In this document: positions 1,757 through 26,241 of the stretch, piece after piece
Numbering within the stretch: the first letter of the stretch is position 1
Layout: each line of letters begins with the position of its first letter
Source: a virus
Direction: 5' to 3' (one strand)
DNA length: 64,000 bases
Virus record (IMG/VR): IMGVR_UViG_3300027917_000033
Location: 23,843-87,842 of that record
Notes under the pieces: model-generated
Seen by the model: the letters and a program-made list of their open reading frames with translations, nothing else
Database searches by the model: none
Told to the model about the DNA's origin: nothing
Program-made: the position numbers and the translations under genes

Positions 1757-1761
1757 TCCTC

Positions 1762-6634: not shown

Positions 6635-6651
6635 TTTCTCAGCATCCTAAT

Positions 6652-6659: not shown

Positions 6660-6686
6660 AATATAGATAAGGTATAGGAGGAAAGA

Positions 6687-8748: not shown

Positions 8749-8759
8749 GGAGACCTCCG

Positions 8760-9161
8760 ATGGAAGATAAGATAGAAATCATCGAACTTGGATTGGACGA
8801 AGATCTTAAGAAGGATATTGAGGATTCGGCTAAATTGTCAGACGACATACAAATTAAATTGAAAAACCAAGTACAAGGTATGACCAAACAAATGATAAAT
8901 AAGAAAGCCCAAGAAAAGAAAAAATGGGAAGGAAAGTTAGATATTATATATGAAATTCTGTTAGAATCATACGAACGTGATCCACAGAAGCATGTTCCCA
9001 AAACTACCATAATAGAAGCCATATCGTGTAGTGACAAAGAACTATCAAGTACGATCTTGCGGTTTAAGCGTTATTTAAGAACCACCAAGGAAGACAAGTG
9101 GACATTGATGCGTAAAAAGGTTAGGGGCATAACTAGTTACGCACTTGCTCCCTTTGCCTAA
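8760..9161 (+). CDS. hypothetical protein (possible winged HTH)
   Basis: ORF 133 aa. Confidence 0.55.
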   Translation: MEDKIEIIELGLDEDLKKDIEDSAKLSDDIQIKLKNQVQGMTKQMINKKAQEKKKWEGKLDIIYEILLESYERDPQKHVPKTTIIEAISCSDKELSSTILRFKRYLRTTKEDKWTLMRKKVRGITSYALAPFA

Positions 9162-9858: not shown

Positions 9859-10684
9859 TACATGTTATGCCATCTTCTTCTAAGCGCGATAGGATTCCAG
9901 CCGGTGGAGCGCCAAGTGGGAAAGCTTCCTTGATGCTTGTTTCGGCTATTATTTTATATCTATTCTTCGTCATACGTGAAAATAACTCTTCGGCGAATGG
10001 GACCGATTCATTTGAAAAGAATTGATATAGCCCATCACCAATCATATTAACTTTCCAAAATGGGATTTGTTTGTCACCTATGAATACTCTTTGAGCGCCT
10101 TCTAAATTGAAGAAATTAGTATTTATCAAGAATAAGTAGTAATCGGAGGATTCCAGATCAGCCTGCATTCCACAGATATTCATCAAAGCGTTTAGTGGTA
10201 TAGTGCTGATGATAGAGTCGTACTGGGTTGGTTTGTCATTTATTACGATGTAATGGTCTTTAATTGACGATACAACGGTATTAATATTTCTTTTAATTTC
10301 GTCGCTATACTTGTCAAGCAGCAAATCGTGCAAGAATTTTGCGGCAATGAACGCAGAACCCTCATTGCAAAGAAGGTGCGATGCTAACGGGTGTGGATTG
10401 TCACCATAAATCTTATCTATAACCGGCCCAATCCAGGCTTTCTTGTTAAATAGTAACTCCCCACCGAGCGACACCGCCACTGGGAAATACAGTGGGATTG
10501 CATTGATGGCCAAGTCGTCTAATAGTTTTGTTGTCTCATCAGTGCGTTTTATTTCAGCGTCTGCTGTCGGTATGTTGAACGAATAGTATCGTGACTTTTT
10601 AAATGGAATAATCTTATAACTCGGCCCAAGAACATGGCGAGCTATAAGGCCGTTTATACCGCTGCCCAATACGAACTTATTCAA
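9782..10684 (-). CDS. FAD/NAD(P)-binding oxidoreductase-like protein
   Basis: VLGSGINGL dinucleotide-binding motif, IISTIPL, GSNARW. Confidence 0.65.
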   Translation of the reverse strand: MNKFVLGSGINGLIARHVLGPSYKIIPFKKSRYYSFNIPTADAEIKRTDETTKLLDDLAINAIPLYFPVAVSLGGELLFNKKAWIGPVIDKIYGDNPHPLASHLLCNEGSAFIAAKFLHDLLLDKYSDEIKRNINTVVSSIKDHYIVINDKPTQYDSIISTIPLNALMNICGMQADLESSDYYLFLINTNFFNLEGAQRVFIGDKQIPFWKVNMIGDGLYQFFSNESVPFAEELFSRMTKNRYKIIAETSIKEAFPLGAPPAGILSRLEEDGITCIGSNARWDYFYDIATSIRKLFSVQQ

Positions 10685-11198
10685 CCTTCATTTCCCCGGA
10701 TGCGATTGGATCTTCAAACCAATCAATGTCATCGCCTTCAATCTTTGGTTCGATTGTCTTTGGTTCTGGCTCTGGTGGCTCTGGTGGCTCTACAATTTCT
10801 GGCACTTCCTTTGCCTCTTCCAGTTTTTGCTTTTGCGGCACATCGAGATATGCGTTTTCTATTTCCTTCTTCAACCCTTCTGCTCGCTTCAACTGTTCAA
10901 CAGCACTAAGTTTAATCATTTCAATTTCTTTTTCACCAGCCCTGCAATTCGTACATATTACCCTTTCTTTGTCCTCTTCCTTGATTATGTCCTTGACGGT
11001 AAATTGAATCATTTGGGCGCATTTTGGACACACTGTAATGTACACTGTTGGCAATATCAAATTGCCATCTTTATCGCGTCCTTGACCAGTATAATCCTTC
11101 CCATCCCATTGGGTCGGCCTAGCGTCAACAAATTCATCGCCTATACAAATGTTGCGCAGCTCAAAGGCTGGAATCGAATTTTCTCCTTTCACGACCAT
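10677..11198 (-). CDS. zinc-ribbon hypothetical protein
   Basis: CPKC...CTNC; Pro/Glu-rich tail. Confidence 0.6.
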   Translation of the reverse strand: MVVKGENSIPAFELRNICIGDEFVDARPTQWDGKDYTGQGRDKDGNLILPTVYITVCPKCAQMIQFTVKDIIKEEDKERVICTNCRAGEKEIEMIKLSAVEQLKRAEGLKKEIENAYLDVPQKQKLEEAKEVPEIVEPPEPPEPEPKTIEPKIEGDDIDWFEDPIASGEMKVE

Positions 11199-11632
11199 CC
11201 CCCTTTCTTATCGCGGTTTTGTCTAGATTCAAGAAGGTGCTTCTTCCATTTTTCGCCACATTCGAAACACATATTGAAGTCCATATGCTTGGGAATTACT
11301 TCAGATGGTCCCTCTTCTTTTTTGTTTTTATCTACTACCACCTTGGTTACAATTAATTGGTAGTACGTGAAAGACGCTCCCTTGCTGTACTTCGGGCACG
11401 AATCACATTTTATCTGTAAAGGGGTGATAGGGCCAAGGTTTTCAATACACTTATTCTTGATGTTAGCAAAGCATGATTCACATATATCACATGAATCAAT
11501 CATTTTGGGCGGCGATGAAAACCCACCGTTAACTGAAATTTCTACTCTGTCGAACGAATAATACGTGAAATCATTTCTATATGCCGACGTACAGATATCA
11601 CACTCTATACCATCCTTTGATTTAAGAAGCAT
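11189..11632 (-). CDS. Cys-rich hypothetical protein (duplicated CxxC module)
   Basis: IECDIC..FTYY..DICESC and IKCDSC..FTYY..NMCFEC. Confidence 0.6.
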   Translation of the reverse strand: MLLKSKDGIECDICTSAYRNDFTYYSFDRVEISVNGGFSSPPKMIDSCDICESCFANIKNKCIENLGPITPLQIKCDSCPKYSKGASFTYYQLIVTKVVVDKNKKEEGPSEVIPKHMDFNMCFECGEKWKKHLLESRQNRDKKGGWS

Positions 11633-13985
11633 CTTTCATCTCCAGTGGAAGGATAATCGACCCAGGCCTTATGTTGAAACTAGAGTATTCTTCCTTCCAT
11701 GCAACCCTGATTCGTATTCCGACTCCTTCCTGAAACAAAGATGGGTCATTAATTGACAATTCGCTATTCCAGACCATGATTTTGGCCAGTTCTACACCAT
11801 CAGTCACCATCATTTGCATGAATTCACCACTAGCGCCTCTGCGCATTTCTAAACTTTCTATTACAGCTTCCAGTATTCCATGTGTTTTGGCGTCTGTTAC
11901 AGTGTGGCCTTCGCAATTGTAGGCATCAAGCGGCGAGTTCCAATAATACCCAAGATACTGTTTCTCAAACGCGAGTTTTTCGGTAAACTTGTAATCGTCA
12001 TATAGTTCTTCTATCTTAGTTAATGTTGGGTTTGGTTTTGGTTTCCAATTTTCTATGCTCTTAGGCACCTTTTTTCTGTTTGGGTATTGCACAAGATACT
12101 CAGCTTTTCTACGCTGTCGTTCCTTTATTATATCAGATTCTTGCCATGCAAGTTTTTCGTTGACTTCTTTCTTGATTTCCTTGTGTTCTTGGCCGGAAGT
12201 AGTATATTTGTAAAGGTACCAATGCCACAAAGCTCGCCGGTTTGGGCATATTTCGTTAAATGCGCCTAGCTTTATTAATCTCTCAAAAACTGTTTTATTC
12301 TTACCCGCTTGGACTATGAACTCATCTATTGAATCTGTGCTTCTTTCGCCAGCTATTTTCTGGGCAGCTTTGATACCTATACCTTTTATGCTTTCAAGCC
12401 CAGGCGTAACCATGTCTCCGTCAACAGAGAAAGTCGGCCCAAGCTTGCGAAAATTAATAGCACCAAACTTAACACCTTCGGCTCTGGCTATACCCATATA
12501 TCTAACTAATTTGTCGTGTTTACAATTAGACATCACCGCAGCCCACCATTCTGCTGGGTAATGTGATTTGAGCCACAAACACCTGTACGAAATAATTACG
12601 TAGGCTATCGCATGGCTAAGGTTGAAACAATACCTAGCAAATGATTCGATTTTGCTCCACCATTCAATTGCCTTTGCGCCCCCTATTGTCTTGGTTGCGC
12701 CATCTATTACTTTGTCTTTAACCTTGGCAAGCTTGTCGGCCCACTTTTTGGCAACGGCTTTGCGTGCTGCTTCAGCTTCTGGGATTGAGAATCCACATAT
12801 GTCGGTGAAGAATCTACTTAATTGTTCTTGGAACACTATAATATTGTATGTGTCTTTTAATATCGCTGTAATCCTTGGGTCCTCGTCGTCCTTCCATGAT
12901 TGGCTGCTTGAATCTCTGCGTTTGATATATTCATCAACTAGAGGCAATGGCCCTGGTCTGCCAAGAGACGTATAAATCACCAGATCATTAAAGTTTTTAA
13001 CACCGCCCTTTTGCAGAATGCTCTTGGCGAGGTCTGTCTCAAACTGAAAAATTGTTTCTACTCGTTTCTGGTCAGCCATTTTGATGGCCAGTGGATCACT
13101 AAACCTTATCGGTTCTCGTTTCCCATCGGCAAATACTTCCCATCCAGCTCGATCTTCTTCCGGGTCCATATTATCCCAATCTATGACCACCCCCCTATTG
13201 CCTTCAATTAATTTCTTGCAGTTCCAAATGTGTAACAAATTGGTTAGGCCAAGTATATCGAATTTGACGAATCCAAATTTTGATAGCTGCGTGCTCCTGC
13301 CTTCTGTCCATGAAGAGGTCCATTGGCCGCCGCTTATTGTCAATGGAATATGGTCTTTGACAGGAACACTAGAGATAATCAGCCCACCAGCATGCCTACC
13401 CTGCGTTTTGATAAGTTTCACAAGTTTGTACGCCAGTGAGACTACGTTCTGGTTTCTGTCGGCATAATCTTTAAATGCCGGATAAGCATCCGCTGCCTCA
13501 TCATAATCCATGTCATCAAACTCATCCGGGAGTGTCTTTGTAAGCTTTTGTATTTCGTCTATGTCTATCCCAAGAGTCCTGCATGTGTCGATTAATGCTA
13601 ACTTTGGCTTGTACGTCTGCCATAAGCCGACACTGCACACCTTATCGACTCCGTATGTATCGGCAGCATACTTCTTAATGTGGTCTCTAGCGATTGGGAG
13701 GAAATCAGAATCAATATCTGGATAATCAGGATGATATTGAATGTTTGGTTTTATGCCAGCTTCTACCGGATCGATATCGGTCAGGCCAAGTAGATGCAGC
13801 AAAACAAGACCGTTTGGATTGTCGTCGAGTTTCTCATTCTTTTCATATAATTCAACCCAGTAATCGGCCATTCCTTGCAATTCTATCTGTTCAAACTCGT
13901 ATGATAGGCGTTTAGAATATGGCTTTGTGTCCGGTTTCTTAGTTAATGCAACGAGTGCAATCTTTTTGAGCTCATTCCAAGTCAT
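11622..13985 (-). CDS. dnaE: DNA polymerase III alpha, catalytic/C-terminal part
   Basis: PDIDSDF, GRHAGG, KFDILGL, IFQFE, RPGPL, VFQEQ, YCFNLSHAIAY, WLKSHYP, IKGIG. Confidence 0.9.
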   Translation of the reverse strand: MTWNELKKIALVALTKKPDTKPYSKRLSYEFEQIELQGMADYWVELYEKNEKLDDNPNGLVLLHLLGLTDIDPVEAGIKPNIQYHPDYPDIDSDFLPIARDHIKKYAADTYGVDKVCSVGLWQTYKPKLALIDTCRTLGIDIDEIQKLTKTLPDEFDDMDYDEAADAYPAFKDYADRNQNVVSLAYKLVKLIKTQGRHAGGLIISSVPVKDHIPLTISGGQWTSSWTEGRSTQLSKFGFVKFDILGLTNLLHIWNCKKLIEGNRGVVIDWDNMDPEEDRAGWEVFADGKREPIRFSDPLAIKMADQKRVETIFQFETDLAKSILQKGGVKNFNDLVIYTSLGRPGPLPLVDEYIKRRDSSSQSWKDDEDPRITAILKDTYNIIVFQEQLSRFFTDICGFSIPEAEAARKAVAKKWADKLAKVKDKVIDGATKTIGGAKAIEWWSKIESFARYCFNLSHAIAYVIISYRCLWLKSHYPAEWWAAVMSNCKHDKLVRYMGIARAEGVKFGAINFRKLGPTFSVDGDMVTPGLESIKGIGIKAAQKIAGERSTDSIDEFIVQAGKNKTVFERLIKLGAFNEICPNRRALWHWYLYKYTTSGQEHKEIKKEVNEKLAWQESDIIKERQRRKAEYLVQYPNRKKVPKSIENWKPKPNPTLTKIEELYDDYKFTEKLAFEKQYLGYYWNSPLDAYNCEGHTVTDAKTHGILEAVIESLEMRRGASGEFMQMMVTDGVELAKIMVWNSELSINDPSLFQEGVGIRIRVAWKEEYSSFNIRPGSIILPLEMKDAS

Positions 13986-14356
13986 TCTTCCCTACATAAT
14001 TGTCTAGCCTCGTCGCTTTTATCAAATACCACCTGTATATCTTTATCAATAATCAGATCTCTTATTTCTTCAACTAGCTCTCTGTTGGATTTCGGCGTAA
14101 GGTCCCATGTAATTTCCTTTCCGTCTGTTTTATATTTCGTCATATTTGCTACATATTGGTTCGGCGTAGTTACTGTGACGTTCTCAATCTTGACACCCAT
14201 TGCGGCAAATTTCATAGCTAATAGTTCAACACTATTAACTGTTGCGTTATCTCCGCCATCATACACAAATGTCTTCTTTTTGTCCTTGTCTTTAACGATC
14301 ACACAGAACTTAGTACCGTATTTGCCACTGACGATACCAGCCGTTTCAATCTTCAT
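13982..14356 (-). CDS. RNase H-fold-like protein (degenerate)
   Basis: ATVNSVELLA, TPNQYV, SNRELVEEI resemble RNase HI elements; catalytic Asp residues not evident. Confidence 0.45.
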   Translation of the reverse strand: MKIETAGIVSGKYGTKFCVIVKDKDKKKTFVYDGGDNATVNSVELLAMKFAAMGVKIENVTVTTPNQYVANMTKYKTDGKEITWDLTPKSNRELVEEIRDLIIDKDIQVVFDKSDEARQLCREE

Positions 14357-14769
14357 GAAAGCATCTCCAAGTGTGGTATCCCAACAGACTTTGCTAATCT
14401 TTTGGCCGTTTTTAATGATGATTTGTGCCAGTCCAGAATGGCATCAACGTCGCCTTTGTCTACATCTGGCATAGTTTTCCCAATTGTCGATATTTCTTCG
14501 GGCCTAAGATTCAATATTTCGCAGAATCCAAACACTAGTGCGCGTAACGTGTGTATGATCATGGCACCAACGTCTTCGACAATTCTTGACTCGTCTCCAT
14601 TTTCATATGCTGCTGCAATCAATGATTCAACAACATCCGGCCATTTAAACATTGAATGTACAGCTATGAATTGGGTTCTACCAGCGCCTACAATCGATAT
14701 ATAGGCTGCTTCTAATTGCTTGGTTTTATTGATTAACTCTTTTAACTGATTTAATTTCGTTGGCGTCAT
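14353..14769 (-). CDS. hypothetical protein
   Basis: ORF between the dnaE halves. Confidence 0.6.
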   Translation of the reverse strand: MTPTKLNQLKELINKTKQLEAAYISIVGAGRTQFIAVHSMFKWPDVVESLIAAAYENGDESRIVEDVGAMIIHTLRALVFGFCEILNLRPEEISTIGKTMPDVDKGDVDAILDWHKSSLKTAKRLAKSVGIPHLEMLS

Positions 14770-15103
14770 ATATGTCTAACTTTAATTCTCCTTCGGCTAT
14801 TCTTATGCCCGATTCAGTACCTTGTATCAGTAGGTGATTGTAAGGTAAGATATTCAAAGCTATTCTCTTATTCGATGGTATCCGCCACACCCTACCTATT
14901 TTGTTATCATAAATATTTACAATTGTGGATATCATTTCCTTTAGTTTCGATATGTTGTCCAACCTGGCAAAAAACCTCAATTCGTTTGTGAAGTTTTTGT
15001 GCGTTGTATTCAAATAGCAATCATCACTGTTTCCAGTCGGATCTATCATTATACTAATAGCGCAGAACCCTCTCGACCTTAGTAACTCTATTGCATCGAT
15101 CAT
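14726..15103 (-). CDS. hypothetical protein
   Basis: ORF between the dnaE halves. Confidence 0.6.
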   Translation of the reverse strand: MIDAIELLRSRGFCAISIMIDPTGNSDDCYLNTTHKNFTNELRFFARLDNISKLKEMISTIVNIYDNKIGRVWRIPSNKRIALNILPYNHLLIQGTESGIRIAEGELKLDIYDANEIKSVKRVNQ

Positions 15104-16491
15104 TCTGCTTTTACATTCAACAGATAACCACCCCTGCTTGGTGACAAAAACCTATTAAACGACAGCTTCCATTTTAGTGGATTGAGGCTATGAATTCCTA
15201 GCAGATAACATAGCAGTGAGCCGCCCGCTGATCCTCGCGCTGGGCCAACGTCCCATCCATTATCTCTTGAATATTGTACTAAATCCATCATTATCAGGAA
15301 GTATGATGCAAAACCTTTTGATATTATTCTCTTAAGCTCCTTTTCTACCTGTTGTTTGTGAGTTACCATTTCGCCGTCCATATGGTATTTAGTCTCGTCG
15401 TTGAATAAATTGTGCTTTTTTAGTCTGTCAAATGCAAGCAATGTCAGTTTTCTGTCGGCATCTGGTATAGACGGCAATTTTGGCGATAGGTCCGGATCGA
15501 ATCCGTCGCACTTATCTGCTGCGATAATTGTATTGTCACATATCTCTTCGAATTTGTCGATTGTTACACCATTGCTGTAGCCTTCATCATAAAATGTGGT
15601 CCTTAAGTCCGCTCTCGTCTTAAAGAACTGTTCATCCGAATTGACTATAAATAATTCCGGGTTATCCATCGTGGTGTTCTGGTCTATTGCCATCATGCAT
15701 TTTTGAACTTCGAAGTCCTCTCTCTTGATGTAGTGACTATCGTTGGTCAACACACCCTTTATCCTGAATTTATCAGACCAGCCAGCACACATCGCGAACG
15801 CCTCTATAGATCCTTCTAGGTCTTTGCCTGGCATTTGCATTTCAATGTACAAGTCATCTCCGAATATTTCATACATTTTGTGCAACCAATCTTTGGCGAT
15901 GTCCAAATACCTCTTGGCCGCCGATCTGTTTTTTTCTTTCATGGCCAAGTATGCTAACCTGATTTCGTGGCATAGCGGGCCGTTTAGGCAGCCAGTTAAT
16001 ACAAGCAAGCCTTCCCTATGCTTGTCCAGTCTATCGAGCCAAACCCTTGGTTTGTAATAGAATCCTATATCCCACGCAGTTGATGTCATATGAATTAGGT
16101 TACGATACCCAACTTTGTTTTTGGCCAGTACTGTCAAATGTCTTTGCCTCCTCAAGCGTTCATATCTCTCAGGGTCAACCAGCTTCAAGGAGGCCCATTT
16201 TTGTCCACTAGCCTGGAATTCTTTTAATTCATTGTGATAATCATTGTAGTACACTTCGCAACCTGCGATGAATTTCACCTTATGCTTTTTGGCGGCAAAA
16301 TATGCGTCTGGAAATGATGCTAGACTACCATGGTCTGTGATTGCTACGGCTGGCATTCCAAGTTCAACGCATCTTTCCATATAATCGTTTGGTGATGCTA
16401 TTCCGTCCAATGGTGAAAATATTGAATGGGTGTGTAGATGGACGAAATTAGTTGGACCTGGATATTTATCTGCCATCTGGCTCGACGTCAC
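15100..16491 (-). CDS. dnaE: DNA polymerase III alpha, N-terminal PHP part
   Basis: FVHLHTHS.FS.LDG, AITDHG, GCEVY, YYKPR, TNDSHY, GPARGSAGGSL, FNRFL. Confidence 0.9.
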   Translation of the reverse strand: MTSSQMADKYPGPTNFVHLHTHSIFSPLDGIASPNDYMERCVELGMPAVAITDHGSLASFPDAYFAAKKHKVKFIAGCEVYYNDYHNELKEFQASGQKWASLKLVDPERYERLRRQRHLTVLAKNKVGYRNLIHMTSTAWDIGFYYKPRVWLDRLDKHREGLLVLTGCLNGPLCHEIRLAYLAMKEKNRSAAKRYLDIAKDWLHKMYEIFGDDLYIEMQMPGKDLEGSIEAFAMCAGWSDKFRIKGVLTNDSHYIKREDFEVQKCMMAIDQNTTMDNPELFIVNSDEQFFKTRADLRTTFYDEGYSNGVTIDKFEEICDNTIIAADKCDGFDPDLSPKLPSIPDADRKLTLLAFDRLKKHNLFNDETKYHMDGEMVTHKQQVEKELKRIISKGFASYFLIMMDLVQYSRDNGWDVGPARGSAGGSLLCYLLGIHSLNPLKWKLSFNRFLSPSRGGYLLNVKAE

Positions 16492-16768
16492 TGACTCTTC
16501 TTAGTCTTTTCCTAGCGGCTAGCAATTTATTTTTTATCTCGTGGAGCAAGTCGTAACGCCCATCAGAATCGTCACTTTCACACAATTCAATGACTTCGCC
16601 AATCATTTCAATTGCATTCTGGACGAGGACGACAACTGCCTGTTTCTTTTTGAACACCTCAGCAGTCTTTAATTTTGGATCGCCAATTATTTTTAGGAAT
16701 ATCTGGCGTTTTGCAAATTTTGCTTCAGTAGCAAGCTCTTCCATGTCCATATTCACCACATCCTCCAT
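16466..16768 (-). CDS. hypothetical protein
   Basis: ORF. Confidence 0.55.
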   Translation of the reverse strand: MEDVVNMDMEELATEAKFAKRQIFLKIIGDPKLKTAEVFKKKQAVVVLVQNAIEMIGEVIELCESDDSDGRYDLLHEIKNKLLAARKRLRRVSDVEPDGR

Positions 16769-16795
16769 TCACCACATATTAAATACTATATATAC

Positions 16796-16830
16796 GCAAC
16801 GAGGCGGAGTCGTCATCTCCGCCTCGTTGC
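16796..16830 (-). terminator. hairpin/terminator
   Basis: GCAACGAGGCGGAG...CTCCGCCTCGTTGC inverted repeat. Confidence 0.6.
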
Positions 16831-16858
16831 AGAAGGAGCTGCCCGAGTGGACTAAAGG

Positions 16859-17116
16859 CTATTCATAGGCGAATTCAGTCGCCAAATCATACAAATCCTC
16901 ATCACTTTGGTCGATTAATGTTGGGATTAAATAATTCCACCATCTTACTAATATAGAACATTCGCTTCCATTTAAAATGATTGGGCGTCCCGATCTTAAT
17001 TTCCTCGCAATTGTTTTATCGGCTTCTATCGTATCCCCTACGAACTGATACCACGTGATGGCTGTCATCACGAGGTTTGGTGGCAATACCACCAATCTTT
17101 TCGTAGTCTCTGCCAT
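16859..17116 (-). CDS. hypothetical protein
   Basis: ORF with GGAG RBS. Confidence 0.55.
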   Translation of the reverse strand: MAETTKRLVVLPPNLVMTAITWYQFVGDTIEADKTIARKLRSGRPIILNGSECSILVRWWNYLIPTLIDQSDEDLYDLATEFAYE

Positions 17117-17179
17117 GTTAAATCTCCGTTTACGCCTATTTACTAAAATACATCTGTAACCACAAGTATATAAGCGAAA

Positions 17180-18934
17180 TTAAGCCGCGACATATGACTC
17201 CACGAATCTAACCGAGCAGGTCCAATCCCATGTCTCTGAATTGTTTCCAGTTATCCTAACCCTTATGCTATCGCCACTAGTATCAAGTGCGGCTTGTAAC
17301 GTAGAGCCAGTTCCAGCCGATTGATTATTTCCAAGCGGCCCGCCAGCAGGAACCAAGACAGCACCGTCAAGAGCTGCATCCAAATACGCCAGTTGATCAT
17401 CATGCCCAAAAGACGCAGCGTCATCTGATGTTCTCTTTTTGGCTGCAATTAGGATCAATAGTGAATATGCCTTCCACGGTTCAAGAGGCATATCCAATAT
17501 TGTCTGTGTTGTATTGGTGGTAGTTTGCAAGTACTTTATGATTTCGCAACTTTGCGAATGGCCAAGACCAGAAGTCCTGTTCGAGCCGAAAGCTTTCTGG
17601 TCAGCTCTGTAAGCATCGGCGTAATATCCCTGGGCGAAGCCACGTGCGGCATATGAACGGCAGTTTTCGCCTTGGCAGAACGACCATTCTGCGTTGTTAA
17701 CTACTGTATTGCTGGAGCCCTGCAGAAATGAGTTGTTCTCATCGGCAGTATTACCATATCCCTGCAACAAATTATAGTCGTTGTTACTCGCTTGTACTGT
17801 ATTAGTATCGCCTTGTATGAAATTGAAATTGTTTCCAGCGCCAGAACAAGTATTATCTGTCCCTTGCATGAAGTTGCCAGAATTGCCAGTGCCAGTGATG
17901 TTGTTACTTAAGCCCTGCAGGAAACAATAGTCGGCCCCGGCAATGCCATTACTCTTACCTTGTATGAAATTGTAATTGTAATACCCATACTCACCGAACA
18001 CACCACCAGTGTAATTGCCATACCCTTGTGTCATACACCCATAACTTTTTCTAGATACAGCATTGCCCTCGCCCTGTGCAAAACTATTCTTGCCACGACC
18101 TGCACCATATGGTCCAACAGCGGCGGCTATGTTGTTTGTGTCACCTTGTGCGAAAGAAGACGCAGAATTGCCGTAGATGGTATTGTTATAACCCTGTGCC
18201 ATACTATTCGGCGATGATGCGTATATTATGTTCGTGTCGCCCTGTGCAAAGCAGTTGTCTGAATATACATCGTTGTCGCTGCCGATTGCAGAGCTATTCG
18301 ATACTGCTGTCGGATAAGCTCCAACTGTATTGCCAGTGCCTTGGGCTATGCCTTGAGAAGCATATACAGAAATCGAGGAGCCCTGCACAAGCATGTCATA
18401 GGTATTAGCACCATAATATCCGACTACCAGGGTTGCGCCTTGAGCGAACGCACGCTGCGTGTAGTTGACGACGACGTTGCCTTGTACCATGGCTATCTGA
18501 CCGTAGCTAAGAGCGCCTTTACCTTGCGCAAACACGTAAGCCGCACCAACTGACCCGGCCCCATAGCCCTGTCCCATCACACAATTTGAATTAGCTATAA
18601 TACCACGCCCCTGCGCTAACGAATAGTTGCCGTTTGCAGACGATGACCAACCTTGGGCAAACGAGCCAACGCCGCTCGCGGATGCAGAGTTGCCTTGCGC
18701 GAACGAATGGTTACCACCGGCAGCCGAAGAGTTTCCCTGAGCAAGCGCGTTGTCACCAGCTGCCGTGGGGGCCACTGCACCCTTACCAATGCCAGCATTC
18801 GTGCCAGCGCCATCAGTGAAGAAGCCTGTGCCATCTGGTGCTGGGATTTCGATAGCACCAATCATCTCCGTGATCATTTCCCATTCACGCTGCATCCCAG
18901 CCCATTTGTCAGGGAATGTGTCTAATACGCTCAT
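17180..18934 (-). CDS. fibre/adhesin-like virion protein with YadA-head-like (S/C)FAQG repeats
   Basis: Many ~14-aa xxAQGxxN repeats (beta-roll), followed by a C-terminal beta domain. Confidence 0.7.
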   Translation of the reverse strand: MSVLDTFPDKWAGMQREWEMITEMIGAIEIPAPDGTGFFTDGAGTNAGIGKGAVAPTAAGDNALAQGNSSAAGGNHSFAQGNSASASGVGSFAQGWSSSANGNYSLAQGRGIIANSNCVMGQGYGAGSVGAAYVFAQGKGALSYGQIAMVQGNVVVNYTQRAFAQGATLVVGYYGANTYDMLVQGSSISVYASQGIAQGTGNTVGAYPTAVSNSSAIGSDNDVYSDNCFAQGDTNIIYASSPNSMAQGYNNTIYGNSASSFAQGDTNNIAAAVGPYGAGRGKNSFAQGEGNAVSRKSYGCMTQGYGNYTGGVFGEYGYYNYNFIQGKSNGIAGADYCFLQGLSNNITGTGNSGNFMQGTDNTCSGAGNNFNFIQGDTNTVQASNNDYNLLQGYGNTADENNSFLQGSSNTVVNNAEWSFCQGENCRSYAARGFAQGYYADAYRADQKAFGSNRTSGLGHSQSCEIIKYLQTTTNTTQTILDMPLEPWKAYSLLILIAAKKRTSDDAASFGHDDQLAYLDAALDGAVLVPAGGPLGNNQSAGTGSTLQAALDTSGDSIRVRITGNNSETWDWTCSVRFVESYVAA

Positions 18935-18960
18935 ATCTCACCTTGTTATCTGGCCTATGT

Positions 18961-18968
18961 TATATTTG
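18961..18968 (-). promoter_or_regulatory. candidate late promoter CAAATATA
   Basis: About 27 nt upstream of the fibre gene start. Confidence 0.45.
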
Positions 18969-18972
18969 AATA

Positions 18973-19776
18973 TTATCTGTATCCGAAGAACTGGTTAAAG
19001 AATGAATGCGATCTCATAATGTGCATTACTACTGTTGGGTTGATTATATTCTTCCATTCGTCCATAGGTGGAGCCTTGACTTCTCCGCATCCCTCGTGCG
19101 GGAATTTATGCAAATAATACGCATCTGGGTCGGTTGAGGTATTTTCTACGTTTTTGAAATCATGTTCGTAGTAGTCTTCTTCCAATATGTCATAAATTTC
19201 GCGCATCATTGCGTCCGGTCGATCTACCAATCTTTCATACCTTACAAAATTAACTGGCAATTTACGATTTATGATATCGTAAATGCCGTTCAGGGGTCCG
19301 CCGACGATCCCCTGATTGCTAAACGCAAATTCTGCCCTTCCCATCATCGTCTTGCGTTCGCTGTTTTGTGCATAATCGAATAGTGGATTTTTACGATGCT
19401 GTTTTTCTATAGACGCGAATACCTCACGTAAATCTCTTATCATAACTAATATTTTGCTGTTTGGGTACACCCGTCTCAGCGGCATAACTAAATGAGTCCA
19501 CCCACGGCTTTTGTCAAATATTACAGCCCTGTCGTCGTTTCTCGCGTGCCAATTATCCGAGAATGCGCGCAAAGAACGTTCGAGGCGATCTTCTGTGCCT
19601 TTACGATCAGCGTCTAGATCACCTTTAACTTCGAAAGCGTTGCTCCACGTGTTTATTATGTTGTTCCATATAAGTGGCAACGCACTGGTGCTAGTCGCCC
19701 AGAATTTTGGGTTTTGGTTCAAGATATTACACAGGAGTGTGCTTCCACTCCTAGGCAGGCCGGTTATGACGTGCAT
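18973..19776 (-). CDS. Sulfotransferase family protein
   Basis: ITGLPRSGSTLL PAPS loop, DKSRGW, IRDLREVFAS, VRYERL. Confidence 0.85.
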   Translation of the reverse strand: MHVITGLPRSGSTLLCNILNQNPKFWATSTSALPLIWNNIINTWSNAFEVKGDLDADRKGTEDRLERSLRAFSDNWHARNDDRAVIFDKSRGWTHLVMPLRRVYPNSKILVMIRDLREVFASIEKQHRKNPLFDYAQNSERKTMMGRAEFAFSNQGIVGGPLNGIYDIINRKLPVNFVRYERLVDRPDAMMREIYDILEEDYYEHDFKNVENTSTDPDAYYLHKFPHEGCGEVKAPPMDEWKNIINPTVVMHIMRSHSFFNQFFGYR

Positions 19777-20063
19777 CAGACGTTAATATCCTCGTCGCCA
19801 GACATTTTGTGGGTATTGACAAAGGCTCTCATGTTATTTATCATTGAGACAGCTTCGTCTTTGTCAGCCCCCAGCAAATCAAGTATTGCAGCTTTGTTGC
19901 CTGGCGCGGCGGCGACGATGCCTTTGATGTTTTTCAATATTTGCCGTTGAATCCTTACCGAACGACCAAGCGCCCTCCTGATGGTGATTGCTGCTTGTTC
20001 GTTTTTCTGTGTGTTTGTTAGAGAGATTTGGCCCCGTGCTTTTGCGTTGTCTGCTAGGCCCAT
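19776..20063 (-). CDS. hypothetical protein (start MGLADNAK)
   Basis: AGGAG RBS before ATG 20063; CAAATATA at 20090-20097. Confidence 0.65.
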   Translation of the reverse strand: MGLADNAKARGQISLTNTQKNEQAAITIRRALGRSVRIQRQILKNIKGIVAAAPGNKAAILDLLGADKDEAVSMINNMRAFVNTHKMSGDEDINV

Positions 20064-20104
20064 CGTGTTGTCTCCTGCATAATTTTTATTATATTTGAAT
20101 AGGC

Positions 20105-20505
20105 TGTTTCCCACCAACCGCATCCCACTAACTAAAGAGTTGGTGGTTAGAAGGGCGACTCTAAAAGTTTGGAAGACCGAAATGAAGGTCGGAAAACCAA
20201 TTTCTTAAAGATGCTACCTTCGCGGCGGTACCTAAACGGGTCTACGATTGTTTCCTTCGCTTTCCCGACCCATTGGAGGCTCAACCGCCGGGTGCCTTCA
20301 CACCCGAAGCCCAGAGGCCATCTCACGATGCTGACTGGTCCCAGTTATGAACAGCGAAATTCACTGGGGAGCACTCGGTCCCAATAGGATTTTACGACAT
20401 CTTTTGATGAAGGCCCGACGTGAACTGGTTGTTTAAAGCCTAACCCGCACAAGCGTCCGTGGGTCAAGCGGGCACCACGGAAGAACGTTTTGAACGGCTT
20501 CAACT
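20105..20505 (-). ncRNA. candidate large structured non-coding RNA
   Basis: GC-richer ~400-nt gap without a convincing ORF, multiple stems, possible pseudoknot, CAAATGTA directly upstream. Confidence 0.55.
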
Positions 20506-20545
20506 TAGATACATTTGACTGACGAACGCGCAAAAATAGCGTAGA

Positions 20546-21034
20546 ATGAAACTAAAATCATTGTATGAATCTGAGTCTGATGAATCTCGCATAAAACGAC
20601 TTCGGGATTCTGTAACAATACCATCATCTAAAAATATTTATAATGACATGATCGGAGTGTCGGAAAGACTGGCGATAGTTGGGCAATATTTAAGTGATTG
20701 GGGCTTTCCAGTTGACCCAGTAAGTAAACCATCAACTGGTCATCCCCCATTCATACGGGTATGGAATAATGAACACAAAACCGGTGTCGTTGCAATATCT
20801 GTTAGAGCATTGGTATCGGGTTATAAAGTATTTGGGATTCCTACAATTGGCCCATCTGAAGTGTTTATAGAAAAACTTGGTAGCAATATGCGAAGAAAGT
20901 CAGCGAATCTGTGGGCCAAAAAAGTCGATTTGGCTAAACCTAATGCACTGCAAACAATAAAACAAATAGTCGAAGAAATGGTTTTTCTGCCAAACCAAAG
21001 ACGTGATCATTTAGTGGACCCAGATGAATCCTGA
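20546..21034 (+). CDS. hypothetical protein, MKLxxLYE leader
   Basis: MKLKSLYESE; C-terminal VDLAKPNAL motif. Confidence 0.7.
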   Translation: MKLKSLYESESDESRIKRLRDSVTIPSSKNIYNDMIGVSERLAIVGQYLSDWGFPVDPVSKPSTGHPPFIRVWNNEHKTGVVAISVRALVSGYKVFGIPTIGPSEVFIEKLGSNMRRKSANLWAKKVDLAKPNALQTIKQIVEEMVFLPNQRRDHLVDPDES

Positions 21035-21548
21035 AGAAATAGCCAAGTTGATCACGGAAGATCCCGACGTCTTCGAAGACTGGGATGAAGCTGATATAGG
21101 ATTGGTGGAAACGATGAATCCAGAGGATATAGCCAAGTTGATCACGGAAGATCCGGACACTCCGGACATTCTGGATCTCGTAAGTCAAAAATTATTCGAA
21201 TTAGGCTATAGCCACGAGAACAGGTGGGGCGGATTATTGATTCGCCCTGAGCAGCTGAACATCGAAGGCGTAGAAGACTGCGAAGGGCTTTATATCGAAG
21301 ATAAAGGCCAAGCCAACATTAACATGATCATGATAGACAAGAACGCGCCTGAGGCTTTCGGTCCTGGAGACTTCACGCCATGGTGGTCGGGGACCTTCCT
21401 GAAGAACATCTGGCGTCGACCAACAGGTTACTTTGACTATTGGTATCCATTGAATTTGGCTGATCCCGAAGAATATGAAGAATTTGAAGAAATTCTTAAA
21501 TGGTCGATGGAAGATTGGAGAGGCTATTGGAGACTGGGTCAACTGTGA
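21024..21548 (+). CDS. ITEDPD-tag protein (two tags)
   Basis: MNPEEIAKLITEDPD...MNPEDIAKLITEDPD. Confidence 0.8.
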   Translation: MNPEEIAKLITEDPDVFEDWDEADIGLVETMNPEDIAKLITEDPDTPDILDLVSQKLFELGYSHENRWGGLLIRPEQLNIEGVEDCEGLYIEDKGQANINMIMIDKNAPEAFGPGDFTPWWSGTFLKNIWRRPTGYFDYWYPLNLADPEEYEEFEEILKWSMEDWRGYWRLGQL

Positions 21549-22387
21549 ACCCTAAAGATATAGCCCGGATGATTACTGAAGACCCGGATATGACGGAAGA
21601 TATAGACGACCTGACAATATTGGGGTGGTTCAAAGAATATCTTGAAAATAGCCCGATTATTGCGAAGGCTTTTGAACACGGTCGCTTTGGCAAGTTCATC
21701 AGGTACGATTTTGAAAACTTTGGGCCTGTCCAGAGCAAACCGTGGGTGCGTCTCAATATAACGACATCTGCACACAGTGGCGCTGTAATTGTACACAATG
21801 GCAAACTTGAATTATTTAATTATTTCATGCCAAAAACGCGCATCGTAGACTTGGCTGATCCGAACGCATTTGAACGTGCTACAGAGATTATAGTAGAGCT
21901 ATTGTTCGCTGGTCCTGCTCGTCGGGCTTTCCAGACAGAGGAAATGAATCGCCCTGACCCAGAAAATACAATCAGGTTGGTCGAAGAAGACCCGAACGCT
22001 AAGTCTATAGAAGAAATAGCGAGTGAGGTGCGTTTAAAGGCAAGCCAACTAGGGATTGATCTTCCACCGACATCGGTCATGTGGACAGATAAAGACACTA
22101 GTCATTATGATTTTAAAGATATCTATATAAGCCAAAGGGATGCTGATGATGCATTTGCGATTGTGGCGCACGAATATGGACACGTTTTGTATGATATGCT
22201 GTCAAAAGAACAGCAAGACATGTGGTTTGAGTTGGTGAATAAAGAAGTCTTCAATGGCAAATTATATCCTGCCCATGGTGACGAAGTTTTTGCTAGAAGT
22301 TTCCAACACGTGATCGCAAATGAGTCAGAACCAGCTTATGAAGCTGCTAGAGATGCATTTTTTAAAATAATGTCATATGAATCCTAA
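21545..22387 (+). CDS. ITEDPD-tag protein with HExxH zincin-like domain
   Basis: GTG start overlapping the previous TGA; VNPKDIARMITEDPD; AHEYGH...DEVFA. Confidence 0.75.
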   Translation: MNPKDIARMITEDPDMTEDIDDLTILGWFKEYLENSPIIAKAFEHGRFGKFIRYDFENFGPVQSKPWVRLNITTSAHSGAVIVHNGKLELFNYFMPKTRIVDLADPNAFERATEIIVELLFAGPARRAFQTEEMNRPDPENTIRLVEEDPNAKSIEEIASEVRLKASQLGIDLPPTSVMWTDKDTSHYDFKDIYISQRDADDAFAIVAHEYGHVLYDMLSKEQQDMWFELVNKEVFNGKLYPAHGDEVFARSFQHVIANESEPAYEAARDAFFKIMSYES

Positions 22388-23111
22388 AGACATAGCTCGG
22401 CTGATCACTGAAGATCCTGATATCTTTAACGAAGACTGGGAAGAATTAGGCATCGAAGATCCATTTGCTATTGATGAAGACGAAATTAAAAAGAAATGGA
22501 CTGCGGCATTAATGGATGCGATGGGCCAAGAATGGGCGTCAATACTAAATGAGAATGATAAGGAGCAGATCCTTGCTGATCAAGATAAGTTCGTAGAGAT
22601 ATTAAAATATGCTAAGGAGGTGGCAGAGAAAAGATACCCGCAGTATACTGTAGACGAGTATTTGCGTAATGCCGCCATATCTGTGGTGGCTTTCCAGGTG
22701 AACATGAGAACGCCCAAGAAGGCTCCTCCAGAAACTCCGCCAGAGACGAAGTATACGGTTTTCCTCTCAGACCCAGAAATGATGCTGGAATTAACCACCA
22801 ACCCGCAAAACTGGAAGAATTACATAGCGATTATCAAAAGAGAGCTAGGAGACGGTCCTTATTATTGGCAGCAATTTGATTCTGATACTGGAATGTTATA
22901 CAATGGACTTTATGCTTACCCAGTGCCAGACGAGCACGTGCTGGAATATTATGACGTATGGTGGATGTATGTAAATATTATCGAAAAAATAACAGACCCT
23001 GAAGAGATTGCCAATACCATACCAGCAATGGGCGACTATAACCTAGGTGGCATCGTGGTATTCAAAAACATGAATGATTTGCTTACTAGGTGGGAGCCAC
23101 TTAGTTTATAA
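22377..23111 (+). CDS. ITEDPD-tag protein
   Basis: MNPKDIARLITEDPD. Confidence 0.8.
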   Translation: MNPKDIARLITEDPDIFNEDWEELGIEDPFAIDEDEIKKKWTAALMDAMGQEWASILNENDKEQILADQDKFVEILKYAKEVAEKRYPQYTVDEYLRNAAISVVAFQVNMRTPKKAPPETPPETKYTVFLSDPEMMLELTTNPQNWKNYIAIIKRELGDGPYYWQQFDSDTGMLYNGLYAYPVPDEHVLEYYDVWWMYVNIIEKITDPEEIANTIPAMGDYNLGGIVVFKNMNDLLTRWEPLSL

Positions 23112-23134
23112 AGGCCGGGTTATCTGGCCTTTTT
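23110..23134 (+). terminator. intrinsic terminator-like hairpin
   Basis: AAAGGCCGGG-TTA-TCTGGCCTTTTT. Confidence 0.55.
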
Positions 23135-23144
23135 ATGAGAGAAT

Positions 23145-23870
23145 ATGGAACCGATAGACATAGCTCGGCTGATTACGGAAGACCCGGATATTGCAGCCGA
23201 TTTCTTTCATGGATACAGATCGTATGGCGACAGAACCAATATGTTGAGGATTTTGGAAAATGGCATAGCCGTCCCAGATACTATGGAAACATATTGGAGT
23301 TGGGATCCTATTCTTTATTATTGGTATAACAAAGACGCAACGCCGGGATATAAGAAAGGGAGACTTGTTGGTAATATCGTAGAGGTAAGGTTCACAGAAA
23401 ATGATCCGAACGTGGGTGGTTTTGGGGATGGCCAGCCTCTATATGCGTATATGGTGGCTAGAGACAAAGAGTGGGTTGACAAACATCATATGGCTAAAGC
23501 GGAAAATCTACTAGACGAATTACCACCTGCAATGAAAAAATCATTCCTAGACCTGCAGCAGCAAATTACAGGAGATCCAAAATGGCGTGGTGATTGGATG
23601 TTTGCTGGCATTTTGCCTGACTACCACAAACAGGCAGCTGTTGATTGGTTTAGAGATGCAAGACGATACTTGTCGGCAGTTGGTACGGCATCTAGTCATG
23701 AATTTAATTATGTTGGCCCTATCATTTCGTTTGGTGACCCAAATAATACTTCAATAGTTGGTATTTACGAATTATACAAAGATACCGGAGAAATCTACAA
23801 GGCATATTATACTTGTGGATTGTCGAAAATCGGATCGGACCTTTTCGCGTCACACAGAAAAACAACATGA
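23145..23870 (+). CDS. ITEDPD-tag protein, possible ADP-ribosyltransferase fold
   Basis: MEPIDIARLITEDPD; FFHG...ILENGI...YWSWDP...HEF. Confidence 0.7.
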   Translation: MEPIDIARLITEDPDIAADFFHGYRSYGDRTNMLRILENGIAVPDTMETYWSWDPILYYWYNKDATPGYKKGRLVGNIVEVRFTENDPNVGGFGDGQPLYAYMVARDKEWVDKHHMAKAENLLDELPPAMKKSFLDLQQQITGDPKWRGDWMFAGILPDYHKQAAVDWFRDARRYLSAVGTASSHEFNYVGPIISFGDPNNTSIVGIYELYKDTGEIYKAYYTCGLSKIGSDLFASHRKTT

Positions 23871-23977
23871 AGAAGCCAATTGAAGTTAAGCCGCAGCCAA
23901 TTAGTTATGGCTGTGTAGGATTGGCTTTATTTGCACTGGCGGTTATCATCACAATTGTTATTGGGATTTATCTATGA
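23867..23977 (+). CDS. small single-pass membrane protein (36 aa, below ORF-track cutoff)
   Basis: MKKPIEVKPQPISYGCVGLALFALAVIITIVIGIYL; ATGA overlaps on both sides. Confidence 0.6.
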   Translation: MKKPIEVKPQPISYGCVGLALFALAVIITIVIGIYL

Positions 23978-24405
23978 ATACAAAAGACATAGCCATGTTA
24001 ATCACTGAGGATCCAGATGTGGCCGAATCGCTAAGAATACTCATTTTAGATGATGATCCACATCCTGATGACCCAGACAACTTTTCAAAAGCTGGCCAAT
24101 TCAGAATTAAGGCATTCAAGAAGAAGTTTATCGGGCATGTTGTTAAATGGGTTAGAACCGCTGAACAGGCTATAGATGAACTAGCAAACAACGACTGGGA
24201 TGTGTTGTTCCTGGATCACGATCTTGGTGGCGAAATATATGTAGATTCTGGGCCTGGTACAGGTTACGAAGTGGCCGTGTGGCTTGAGAAAAACCCAGAC
24301 AGACAGCCACCGCAGATATTCTTACACAGCCTAAATTCTGTTGGTAGGCAAAATATGCAAGCGGCCTTACCAAATGCAACGCAAACGCCGTTCGCGTGGA
24401 AATAG
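23974..24405 (+). CDS. ITEDPD-tag cyclic-phosphate-processing receiver-like domain protein
   Basis: ILDDD...LFLDHDLG...TGYEVAVWLE...LHSLNSVGRQNM. Confidence 0.75.
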   Translation: MNTKDIAMLITEDPDVAESLRILILDDDPHPDDPDNFSKAGQFRIKAFKKKFIGHVVKWVRTAEQAIDELANNDWDVLFLDHDLGGEIYVDSGPGTGYEVAVWLEKNPDRQPPQIFLHSLNSVGRQNMQAALPNATQTPFAWK

Positions 24406-24442
24406 AGGCAAAGATAATTTATGAATACATTGTGTGCGAAAC

Positions 24443-24850
24443 ATGAATGATATTAAGAAAATAGCAGGCCTGATCACTGAAGATCCTGATGTGATACAGG
24501 AAACCGGTTTATCAGATTTGTATGAACAAGAAGCAGAATTATTAAAAGCATTATGGGGATACCTTGAGGAAGAAGGGATCCAAATGGAGGCCGGGTCTCA
24601 TCTAACTCGTGGTGTGCCAAAAGGTATGACCAGGCATCCTGAAACTGGGCCGCAATTGTGGAGAAGATCTCCAAATGGTAGGATTGATATCTGGAAAACA
24701 CCAGGGCGACTGGCAAAGAGTGACCACGATTACACTGCATCTTACGATGCCGGGTGGTCATCTAAAGGGCGTTTATATTTTAGATTCAATGTATGTGACC
24801 CGGAATCGTTCCCAAAGGTTAGGGATTTCATTTTAAAGCATACAACATGA
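24443..24850 (+). CDS. ITEDPD-tag protein
   Basis: MNDIKKIAGLITEDPD...LSDLYEQE...FNVCDPESF. Confidence 0.75.
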   Translation: MNDIKKIAGLITEDPDVIQETGLSDLYEQEAELLKALWGYLEEEGIQMEAGSHLTRGVPKGMTRHPETGPQLWRRSPNGRIDIWKTPGRLAKSDHDYTASYDAGWSSKGRLYFRFNVCDPESFPKVRDFILKHTT

Positions 24851-25206
24851 AACCAGAAGACATAGCGAAAAGAATCACTGAAGATCCTGATGTGATACAG
24901 GGAATGCCAGATTTGGTTGTGCCATACACCCTGTTTGACGATGATGATTATGAAGTTGCGGTGTCTGTCGGTGGCGATTTAGACGATACAATGCTCCAGG
25001 ACATACTGTTTGCCAAAGAAAAACGTACTGGCAGACTATTGGATGGTGACGAATTTGCCAGTTTGAACGCTGCTGAGGGCATAGATTATATAGGACAACT
25101 TGAAGATCGGATTAACGAATATTATGCAGATGCTGGGATGATAGACGACGTCGATGCTTATAAACGCACTAAGGAAGACGAATTACTTGGAAGACACGGA
25201 TATTGA
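24847..25206 (+). CDS. ITEDPD-tag acidic protein
   Basis: MKPEDIAKRITEDPD. Confidence 0.75.
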   Translation: MKPEDIAKRITEDPDVIQGMPDLVVPYTLFDDDDYEVAVSVGGDLDDTMLQDILFAKEKRTGRLLDGDEFASLNAAEGIDYIGQLEDRINEYYADAGMIDDVDAYKRTKEDELLGRHGY

Positions 25207-25583
25207 AATTGCCGGTGTTATATGAAGAAATAGACAAGGCTAGTTATGATGTAGCAGAACTGCTCGTAAAATTTTTGCAAGATGTTAAACTTCCTGGCAA
25301 CCCTGAAATAGACAGCCACTCTCCCCCGTGGCGGGCTGGCCGATCGAGTGCTGCTGCTGTAATTACAGTTAGAGCACGTATTGCATGGCGTTTTCAATTT
25401 CAAGCACTTGCTAGAATAATTGTGTATGATGATGGAACGATTGACCTGGCAACTGGATTGTGTAAAAAGGGCGATATGGTACCAAGGATTGGCGCGAGTC
25501 ATTGGCAATATAATTATTATGACCCAAAATCATTTGGGAACATAGAGAGACGTCTTAAAGAGTTGTTCGGTAAATATTTTTAA
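25203..25583 (+). CDS. hypothetical protein, MKLxxLYE leader
   Basis: MKLPVLYEE; C-terminal YNYYDPKSF. Confidence 0.65.
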   Translation: MKLPVLYEEIDKASYDVAELLVKFLQDVKLPGNPEIDSHSPPWRAGRSSAAAVITVRARIAWRFQFQALARIIVYDDGTIDLATGLCKKGDMVPRIGASHWQYNYYDPKSFGNIERRLKELFGKYF

Positions 25584-25588
25584 TATAG

Positions 25589-25645
25589 CAGGGGCGAAGC
25601 TCACGAAGCTTCGCCCCCTGGTGTTGATCTCCGACGATCAACACC
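25589..25645 (+). terminator. tandem hairpins
   Basis: CAGGGGCGAAGCT...AGCTTCGCCCCTG then GTGTTGATC...GATCAACAC. Confidence 0.55.
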
Positions 25646-25673
25646 TTTAGCACCCCGTTTTAATTTTGATGTT

Positions 25674-25886
25674 ATGATATTATGGGTACTGATGGATCCG
25701 AAGAATATGTCTCCGGTACTTCCGGGCTCAACTTGGATATATCGCGGTCTGATGATCTTTGTTGTCGAAAGTTATGCAATAGATGACGAATGGATCATTA
25801 CTGCGGTAACTAGGGATGGAGATTCGATGGTTATTTCTACAAATATAGAGAAATGGCTTGAAGATGCCGATTATCTGGAGACATAA
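25674..25886 (+). CDS. hypothetical protein
   Basis: ORF. Confidence 0.5.
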   Translation: MILWVLMDPKNMSPVLPGSTWIYRGLMIFVVESYAIDDEWIITAVTRDGDSMVISTNIEKWLEDADYLET

Positions 25887-25887
25887 G

Positions 25888-26241
25888 ATGGTTGACTTTG
25901 TGCATCCGTTCCCAGGCAAGAAACCAGGTGACAAAATCACGAAGCAAGAGCTGATTAGTGCTCTTCGCCTGTCACTATGTGCTGAAGAAGAAGCAACTCA
26001 TCTTTACGACACAATAGCCGAATATACAGATGACGAAAGAGTCAAAAAAGTCATGAAGGATGTGGCCAATGAAGAACAGGTACACGTTGGCGAATTCCAA
26101 AAATTATTAGATCTCATGGAAGATGACGAAGAGGAGAAAGTAGGGGAGGGTAAGAAAGAAGCCGAAGAGAAAATAGAATCTATACAGAAACAGATAGCAG
26201 ATTTTATCACAGAGGACCCGGATTGGTCCGTTAGTAAATAA
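25888..26241 (+). CDS. Ferritin-like protein (encapsulin-associated Flp/rubrerythrin type) with C-terminal ITEDPD tag
   Basis: ALRLSLCAEEEATHLY...DVANEEQVHVGEF di-iron motif; ends IADFITEDPDWSVSK. Confidence 0.8.
   Translation: MVDFVHPFPGKKPGDKITKQELISALRLSLCAEEEATHLYDTIAEYTDDERVKKVMKDVANEEQVHVGEFQKLLDLMEDDEEEKVGEGKKEAEEKIESIQKQIADFITEDPDWSVSK

Follow-up and report, generated by a model that had tools for sequence, protein, structure and literature searches.

The 3' third of a gap between two divergent phage genes, its last ~120 nt, is probably a conserved structured RNA element of the minus strand, judging from its sequence and that of one relative. The element matches no known RNA family, and the lineage that carries it is rare. 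The window, meaning the whole stretch of 64,000 nt that was analysed, comprises bases 23843-87842 of an IMG/VR virus record of 87,842 bp with a CheckV completeness of 24%, and its source is a large or huge marine-sediment phage of a rarely sampled lineage. The explanation that we prefer, tentatively and at somewhat less than an even chance, is that the gap is transcribed leftward and that the structured RNA is the 5' leader of an operon for a 95-aa protein, a sulfotransferase and a YadA-like fibre. The element is a lead and not a discovery: it has two carriers among the matches listed, and the second, the metagenome locus L014, covers the 3' part.

The stretch is present in two DNA runs of one marine-sediment sample, and no variants relative to the window were found in the contigs of those two runs. 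A 261,688-bp assembly encodes an identical 95-aa protein. The gap is placed at 20064-20545 because the 95-aa ORF on the minus strand begins with the ATG at 20063, with AGGAGA 8 nt upstream and a start Met shared by its homologues, and because the 162-aa ORF on the plus strand starts at 20546. The gap that a preliminary description had pointed out is thus real, 482 nt long and flanked by divergent genes. It lies where a long minus-strand gene block gives way to a long one on the plus strand, and the cumulative GC skew has a local minimum there. It is also GC-richer than its flanks, as that description held, with values of 0.505-0.535 at 20100-20500; the immediate flanks have 0.355-0.47 and the whole record 0.437. 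Coding DNA at 18500-18900 is richer still (0.555-0.595). The features of the gap are as follows.

20064-20545, minus: whole gap between divergent genes, 482 nt, candidate RNA-coding region; the 5' limit of the RNA is not fixed
20517-20510, minus: CAAATGTA, previously called a late-promoter-like motif
20480-20475 with 20462-20457, minus: pseudoknot stem 1, CCGTGG with CCACGG, from the sequence
20473-20468 with 20448-20443, minus: pseudoknot stem 2, loop GCCCGC complementary to GCGGGT, from the sequence
20443-20480, minus: predicted H-type pseudoknot formed by CCGUGG/CCACGG and GCCCGC/GCGGGU, from a single sequence
20442-20437 with 20105-20100, minus: predicted 6-bp closing helix UAGGCU/AGCCUA, from fold prediction
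20215-20442, minus: GC-rich central part with predicted helices, from MFE and centroid folds and inverted repeat I4
20330-20319, minus: predicted CATC-GTGA-GATG hairpin
20305-20289, minus: GGGTG/CACCC helix; a CGGGUGU-GAAG-GCACCCG hairpin is predicted in the central part
20214-20154, minus: 61-nt extended hairpin with conserved pairing, from the window-only fold and L014
20190-20175, minus: GACC/GGTC helix, the tip of the 61-nt hairpin
20111-20146, minus: terminal hairpin CCACCAAC/GUUGGUGG as a whole, compatible with L014
20146-20139 and 20118-20111, minus: arms CCACCAAC/GTTGGTGG of the terminal hairpin (inverted repeat I15, 8 bp, 100% complementary)
20128-20097, minus: 32-nt block identical in L014 by alignment, holding the 3' arm GUUGGUGG and the 3' strand of the closing helix
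20093-20088, minus: TATAAT shared with L014, part of AAATATAATA, after the block and before the ribosome-binding site
20345-20533: 62-aa small ORF, outside the stretch covered by L014

The standard genetic code applies because all three stops close large frames (TGA 42, TAA 35 and TAG 19 of 97). An alternative code is ruled out by this use of stops and by the lack of a suppressor among the 19 tRNA genes that ARAGORN found in the window. None of these genes lies within 20 kb of the gap, and the tRNA arrays begin 24 kb from it. The Rfam count of tRNAs in the window is 18 against the 19 of ARAGORN; an 86-nt tRNA-Met at 45472-45557 (CAT, anticodon at position 37) is called by ARAGORN and is unreported by the Rfam tRNA model at gathering score.

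The gap is non-coding. Stops occur in six of six frames, and the codon-usage log-odds of its four ORFs of 37-72 aa (0.026, 0.027, -0.116 and 0.14) can be set against 0.279±0.093 for real 60-codon chunks of this genome and 0.003±0.134 for wrong frames. None of the four has a Pfam or PHROG match at E<0.1. A small ORF that would account for the region in place of an RNA was looked for, and by codon usage, Pfam and PHROG no coding-like one was found. Indels in L014, of 5 nt in a hairpin loop and 3 nt further on, fall inside three of the four small ORFs, which argues against coding. On the plus strand, 20147-20533 read in register with the 162-aa ORF scores 0.18 for codon usage, between the 0.28 of genes and the 0.00 of wrong frames, although it has several stops; composition is probably the cause.

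It is quite unlikely that the gap is a spacer or a decayed gene, with nothing beyond ordinary promoters and with helices that arise by chance from its locally higher GC. Such an origin would suit a minus-strand frame with a single stop across ~129 codons, the plus-strand score of 0.18, the unremarkable folding z-scores described below, and a lineage so rarely sampled that conservation is hardly testable. However, codon usage in the small ORFs is of the non-coding kind, family searches with them gave no match, and the proteins encoded upstream of the 95-aa gene in four other metagenome loci (L015-L018) have no tblastn match in the gap. A remnant of the gene that precedes these genes in other phages was rejected on the same lack of a match. 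The spacer reading also leaves aside that conservation is higher in the non-coding DNA than in the flanking genes, that the longest identical run falls there, and that the substitutions there preserve structure (P ~0.001), as set out below.

Every helix of the preliminary description is present in the sequence, at the positions listed above. With search criteria (H-type, two 6-bp GC-rich stems, comparable loops) that were set after the case had been seen, and that make its rarity suggestive only because they are fitted to it, the predicted pseudoknot is the sole one of such strength in the 64-kb window on both strands (128 kb scanned). Among 3000 dinucleotide shuffles of the gap, 12 contain a comparable one, and so do 5 of 12 shuffles of the whole window. 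The whole gap has an MFE of -151.8 kcal/mol (z -1.83), and 5 of 100 shuffles fold as well; for the 416-nt core, z is -1.76 on either strand. A local fold scan covered 774 window-strands of 150 nt at window positions 1-17,550, 17,476-26,100 and 44,001-47,100. The best local z in the gap is -2.15, and the scan background has a mean of -0.38, an sd of 1.23 and a 5th percentile of -2.72. The folding energy of the gap is not clearly below shuffled controls (z ~-1.8, no outlying local windows), so stability alone gives no support. The earlier claim of a structured RNA is supported in part, by the conserved pairing of the 20214-20154 hairpin; the thermodynamic stability of the region is unremarkable.

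Conservation was assessed through relatives of the downstream gene. HMMER with the 95-aa protein against 1.84 billion representatives gave 14 relatives, and an alignment of the five closest (A3) led to at least five metagenome loci, L014-L018. In the 95-aa family of 14 representatives, M1, D5, P54, H85 and K86 are invariant in 16 aligned sequences. Homologous upstream DNA occurs in L014 alone among the matches listed. The 95-aa protein of L014 (P0004, for which a 3,299-bp contig is on record) is 63% identical to that of the window. The L014 contig breaks off 162 nt before its ATG for this protein, at the equivalent of window position 20214. It covers the 3' 143 nt of the gap only, two sequences yield no per-pair statistics, and 20215-20480, with the pseudoknot and the GC-rich helices, lies outside the comparison because L014 ends where it does.

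Within the shared stretch, the non-coding upstream DNA is identical at 119 of 164 columns (72.6%), and the nucleotide identity of the 95-aa gene is 63.1%, that of the sulfotransferase gene 68.1%. By blastn, the upstream DNA matches L014 at 75% over 144 nt (E 2e-21). The 61-nt hairpin, with 18 predicted pairs, already appears in single-sequence folds. In L014, 17 of the 18 pairs are kept despite substitutions at 20 of the 61 columns, nine of them paired. Three pairs are compensatory (G-C to C-G twice, A-U to G-C), and one U-A has become U-G. Such pair retention was matched in 42 of 200,000 random-placement simulations (P 2e-4), and with the substitution types kept the P value is 0.0014. Compensatory change of the kind expected of a conserved structured RNA was found for 20214-20154 only, in one homologue. 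The GACC/GGTC stem that had been noticed earlier proves to be part of this longer hairpin, in which compensatory changes preserve the pairing in L014. The hairpin contains three G·U pairs, and it folds better on the minus strand than on the plus strand in both sequences (-17.7 vs -10.1 kcal/mol in the window, -21.5 vs -15.3 kcal/mol in L014). The G·U pairs and the better minus-strand folding point to an RNA read from the minus strand, and thus favour the sense proposed earlier.

No identical run in the 1.18 kb common to the window and L014 is longer than the 32-nt block that follows; the second longest, of 21 nt, is inside the sulfotransferase gene. The block is unique in the 87.8-kb record. 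The terminal hairpin CCACCAAC/GTTGGTGG, which had been described from the letters alone, has its 3' arm in this invariant block. It shows no covariation because that arm is invariant, and in L014 a 3-nt insertion in the 5' arm would form a bulge. Beyond the block, both sequences share AAATATAATA with its TATAAT, at a distance from the block of 3 nt in the window against 11 nt in L014. The TATAAT was not called by the promoter scan because it has no good -35, and it is possibly a -10 element or a pause signal.

A role of the gap at the level of DNA is unlikely. The gap would hold divergent promoters and operators, or a replication origin; a protein would bind the invariant block, and the hairpin would be a feature of the DNA. 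Its place exactly between two large divergent gene blocks, at the local cumulative GC-skew minimum, agrees with this, as do the need of both flanking gene sets for promoters, the resemblance of the 32-nt invariant block to an expected operator or initiator site, and a folding z that is equal on both strands. Yet compensatory changes keep a hairpin that has three G·U pairs and is 6-8 kcal/mol stabler on the minus strand, and these properties together fit an RNA better than DNA. The distance from block to TATAAT varies. Repeated boxes and an AT-rich unwinding stretch, the marks of a replication origin, were not found in the gap, where repeats are two-copy short matches without iterons and the GC content is higher than in the flanks. 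Together, the difference between the strands, the G·U pairs, the missing iterons and the high GC weigh against a DNA-level role.

Searches for further carriers gave little. Comparison of the gap by blastn with 50,697 phage records gave no match, and the element is single-copy in its own 87.8-kb record. Two genomes that carry relatives of the sulfotransferase, G001 (527 kb) and G002 (50 kb), gave blastn matches at chance level only (E>=0.04) and no covariance-model match to the element; G001 is distant, its DnaE being 34% identical. Related-locus searches with the 162-aa protein and with the DnaE part found none. The same was true of the 95-aa alignments A1 and A3 against viral contigs, of A1 against metagenome contigs, and of P0002 against genome contigs. 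Short exact words were no more productive: a 17-mer had two chance matches in viral contigs, and a 20-mer from the invariant block had none there and four in genome contigs. These four, like the two matches of an 18-mer in viral contigs, were judged by eye to be chance in GC-rich coding DNA. In L015-L018 an ordinary co-directional ORF stands directly upstream of the 95-aa gene, and the element is absent by blastn and by model R1. Over the window and seven loci, that model matches its two source sequences only.

Known RNA families were searched with Rfam 15 (4227 covariance models, with the family gathering score as the criterion), in a copy that we take to include GOLLD, ROOL, OLE, HEARO, tmRNA, RNase P, SRP, group I and II introns and riboswitches. 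At gathering score the window gave 18 tRNA matches only, none of them in the gap. A permissive scan at E<=10 gave for the gap one match of 15.1 bits to sobemo_FSE, a plant-virus frameshift element with a gathering score of 55, and a scan of L014 1-200 gave nothing meaningful. ARAGORN found no tmRNA, that is, no tRNA-like domain with a tag frame, in the window. The Rfam check proposed in the preliminary description, which named GOLLD, ROOL, OLE and HEARO, has thus been run and yields no meaningful family match even at E<=10. Its remark that RNase P, tmRNA, SRP and intron signatures are missing agrees with Rfam 15 and ARAGORN. A literature search, judged from its search results, found no paper on such an element.

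Downstream of the gap, the genes of the minus strand are arranged as follows.

16859-20063, minus: co-directional genes downstream of the gap, whole
20063-19776, minus: 95-aa protein gene, directly downstream of the gap
19776-18973, minus: sulfotransferase gene (Sulfotransfer_3, 1.2e-16)
18934-17180, minus: 584-aa YadA-head-like fibre protein, from Atlas features and structure look-ups
17116-16859, minus: 85-aa ORF
16796-16830: perfect 14-bp GC-rich hairpin with a 7-nt loop, after the 85-aa ORF, with an AU-rich stretch next on the minus strand

The hairpin at 16796-16830 is likely to be the end, or terminator, of the unit with the 95-aa, sulfotransferase and fibre genes, and 150-nt windows of its region have z values of -3.4 to -4.9. 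The 95-aa and sulfotransferase genes form a recurring module that is conserved in L016 and L018, with sulfotransferase identities of 56-67%. The fibre gene follows the module in the window; a relative of the 584-aa protein is likewise encoded downstream of it in L016, but upstream in L018. Together, the 95-aa protein, the sulfotransferase and the YadA-head-like fibre may constitute a fibre-modifying module.

Elsewhere in the scan, the most negative fold z of all 774 window-strands (-7.1) is at 25590-25660, where two adjacent perfect GC-rich hairpins of 13 bp and 10 bp occupy a 90-nt gap between the plus-strand ORFs 25203-25583 and 25674-25886. They resemble an intrinsic terminator, possibly a two-way one, inside a gene cassette that had been called 'tagged'.

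Signals for the start and end of an RNA bear on whether the element is transcribed with these genes or apart from them. The late-promoter-like motif of the preliminary description is not supported. CAAATGTA is not recurrent, with six occurrences against 3.0 expected and 6 of 100 shuffles reaching six. It lies upstream of a gene start in two of the six cases (positions compared with ORF lists), and its two intergenic copies have no extended similarity to each other. A recurring promoter motif was rejected as well, since k-mer enrichment in 56 upstream regions returned tRNA-derived words only. No terminator-like site was found in 19700-20900, and the ribosome-binding site follows 30 nt beyond the conserved domain with no terminator between.

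A free-standing, trans-acting structured RNA of ~350-420 nt, with a 5' pseudoknot and a multi-helix domain, is a rather unlikely alternative. Such an RNA would be closed by UAGGCU/AGCCUA, would have the invariant block as its 3' end, and would arise from a promoter of its own or by processing of a longer transcript. Several observations speak for it: stable RNAs in AT-richer genomes typically show such a length and such a raised GC content, a pseudoknot like the predicted one seldom arises by chance (12 of 3000 shuffles, the sole site in the window), the predicted long-range closing helix has its 3' strand exactly in the invariant block, and the 3' hairpin is conserved. The absence of the element from other carriers of the module suggests independence of those genes. 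In addition, the conserved TATAAT after the block could be the operon's own, separate promoter, in which case the structured domain would lie outside the mRNA and be a separate RNA. Against these points, there is no terminator after the element, no promoter was identified (with CAAATGTA not recurrent), the MFE z is only -1.8 with no outlying local windows, there is no Rfam relative, and no second copy was found in the 87.8-kb record, in G001 or in G002. The earlier proposal of a free-standing RNA of ~400 nt therefore keeps its conserved 3' structure, but with no terminator before the downstream gene a leader is at least as likely. A bolder version has 20097-20480 as one free-standing RNA of ~380 nt that would act in trans during infection, representing a new large class in huge marine-sediment phages. 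In this model a predicted 5' pseudoknot would be followed by a five- or six-way junction, the UAGGCU/AGCCUA closure and an invariant 3' seal. We regard this version as improbable.

The simplest reading is a structured 5' leader, because no terminator separates the element from the 95-aa gene. A leftward, minus-strand transcript would cover the gap and run into the 95-aa gene, and the unit would extend from 20063 to the hairpin at 16796-16830 and hold four genes. The last ~120 nt of the leader would contain the long hairpin 20214-20154 and a second hairpin region with the 32-nt block as its 3' half, and the GC-rich 5' two-thirds and the pseudoknot may belong to the same RNA. We infer from the sequence that the RNA would act in cis, on its transcript or on the transcribing polymerase. 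It could be a two-hairpin elongation or antitermination signal, or else an operator of stability or translation, with a putative factor binding at the invariant block. In favour of the leader are the position of the element at the start of a transcription unit, where the coding strand switches and the GC skew turns, and the properties of the DNA itself: it is non-coding, 72.6% identical to L014, and carries the 32-nt block, 17 of 18 kept pairs and a minus-strand preference. Against it, L015-L018 carry the same gene module without the element, so that the module does not need it, and whole-gap folding is unexceptional and equal on both strands.

Large structured non-coding RNAs are rare, each new class is informative on RNA function, and phages are a known reservoir. 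The present element has no match among described families, shows partly conserved pairing, and lies at the main divergent control point of a fragment of a huge phage. A cis-acting leader, if true, would add a new case in which an RNA controls a set of phage structural genes. A free-standing RNA, if true, would be a new class.

Three kinds of known system offer comparisons. Like GOLLD, ROOL, OLE, HEARO, tmRNA and RNase P, the candidate would be hundreds of nucleotides long, with multiple helices and a pseudoknot (predicted here), and it is phage-borne. It also resembles GOLLD, ROOL and other big Rfam classes in being GC-richer than its surroundings and in having an unknown or unusual function. 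Unlike these classes, it has no covariance-model match and lies in a gap 24 kb from tRNA arrays, and it has two known carriers only among the matches listed. The leader of T4 gene 32, a translational operator, has a 5' pseudoknot and an unstructured AU-rich stretch before the start codon. The window likewise has a predicted 5' H-type pseudoknot and an AU-rich unstructured stretch before the ribosome-binding site. In contrast to the T4 leader, the predicted pseudoknot of the window is separated from the start codon by ~380 nt that include several helices, and the gene that follows is not known to encode an autoregulator that binds nucleic acid. The put RNAs of HK022 are cis-acting antitermination RNAs of a lambdoid phage. 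According to the parts of the source consulted, they are ~70 nt long with two stem-loops, putR lies ~270 nt downstream of the start site, the effect of put persists for at least 10 kb, and putL is associated with a -10-like sequence (PMC9378689). The conserved domain of the window is longer, at ~120 nt in a whole gap of 482 nt. In a put-type arrangement of two stem-loops, one hairpin of the window shows covariation, the second is invariant and hence uninformative, and the promoter position is not fixed. The resemblance is an analogy and not membership, being a likeness of position and outline only, and it is limited to what those parts of the source describe. Within that scope, both would be phage elements at the start of a transcription unit with two stem-loops, the second a predicted one in the window, and no terminator of their own. 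In the window the conserved hairpin is followed by a second hairpin region and by the TATAAT shared with L014.
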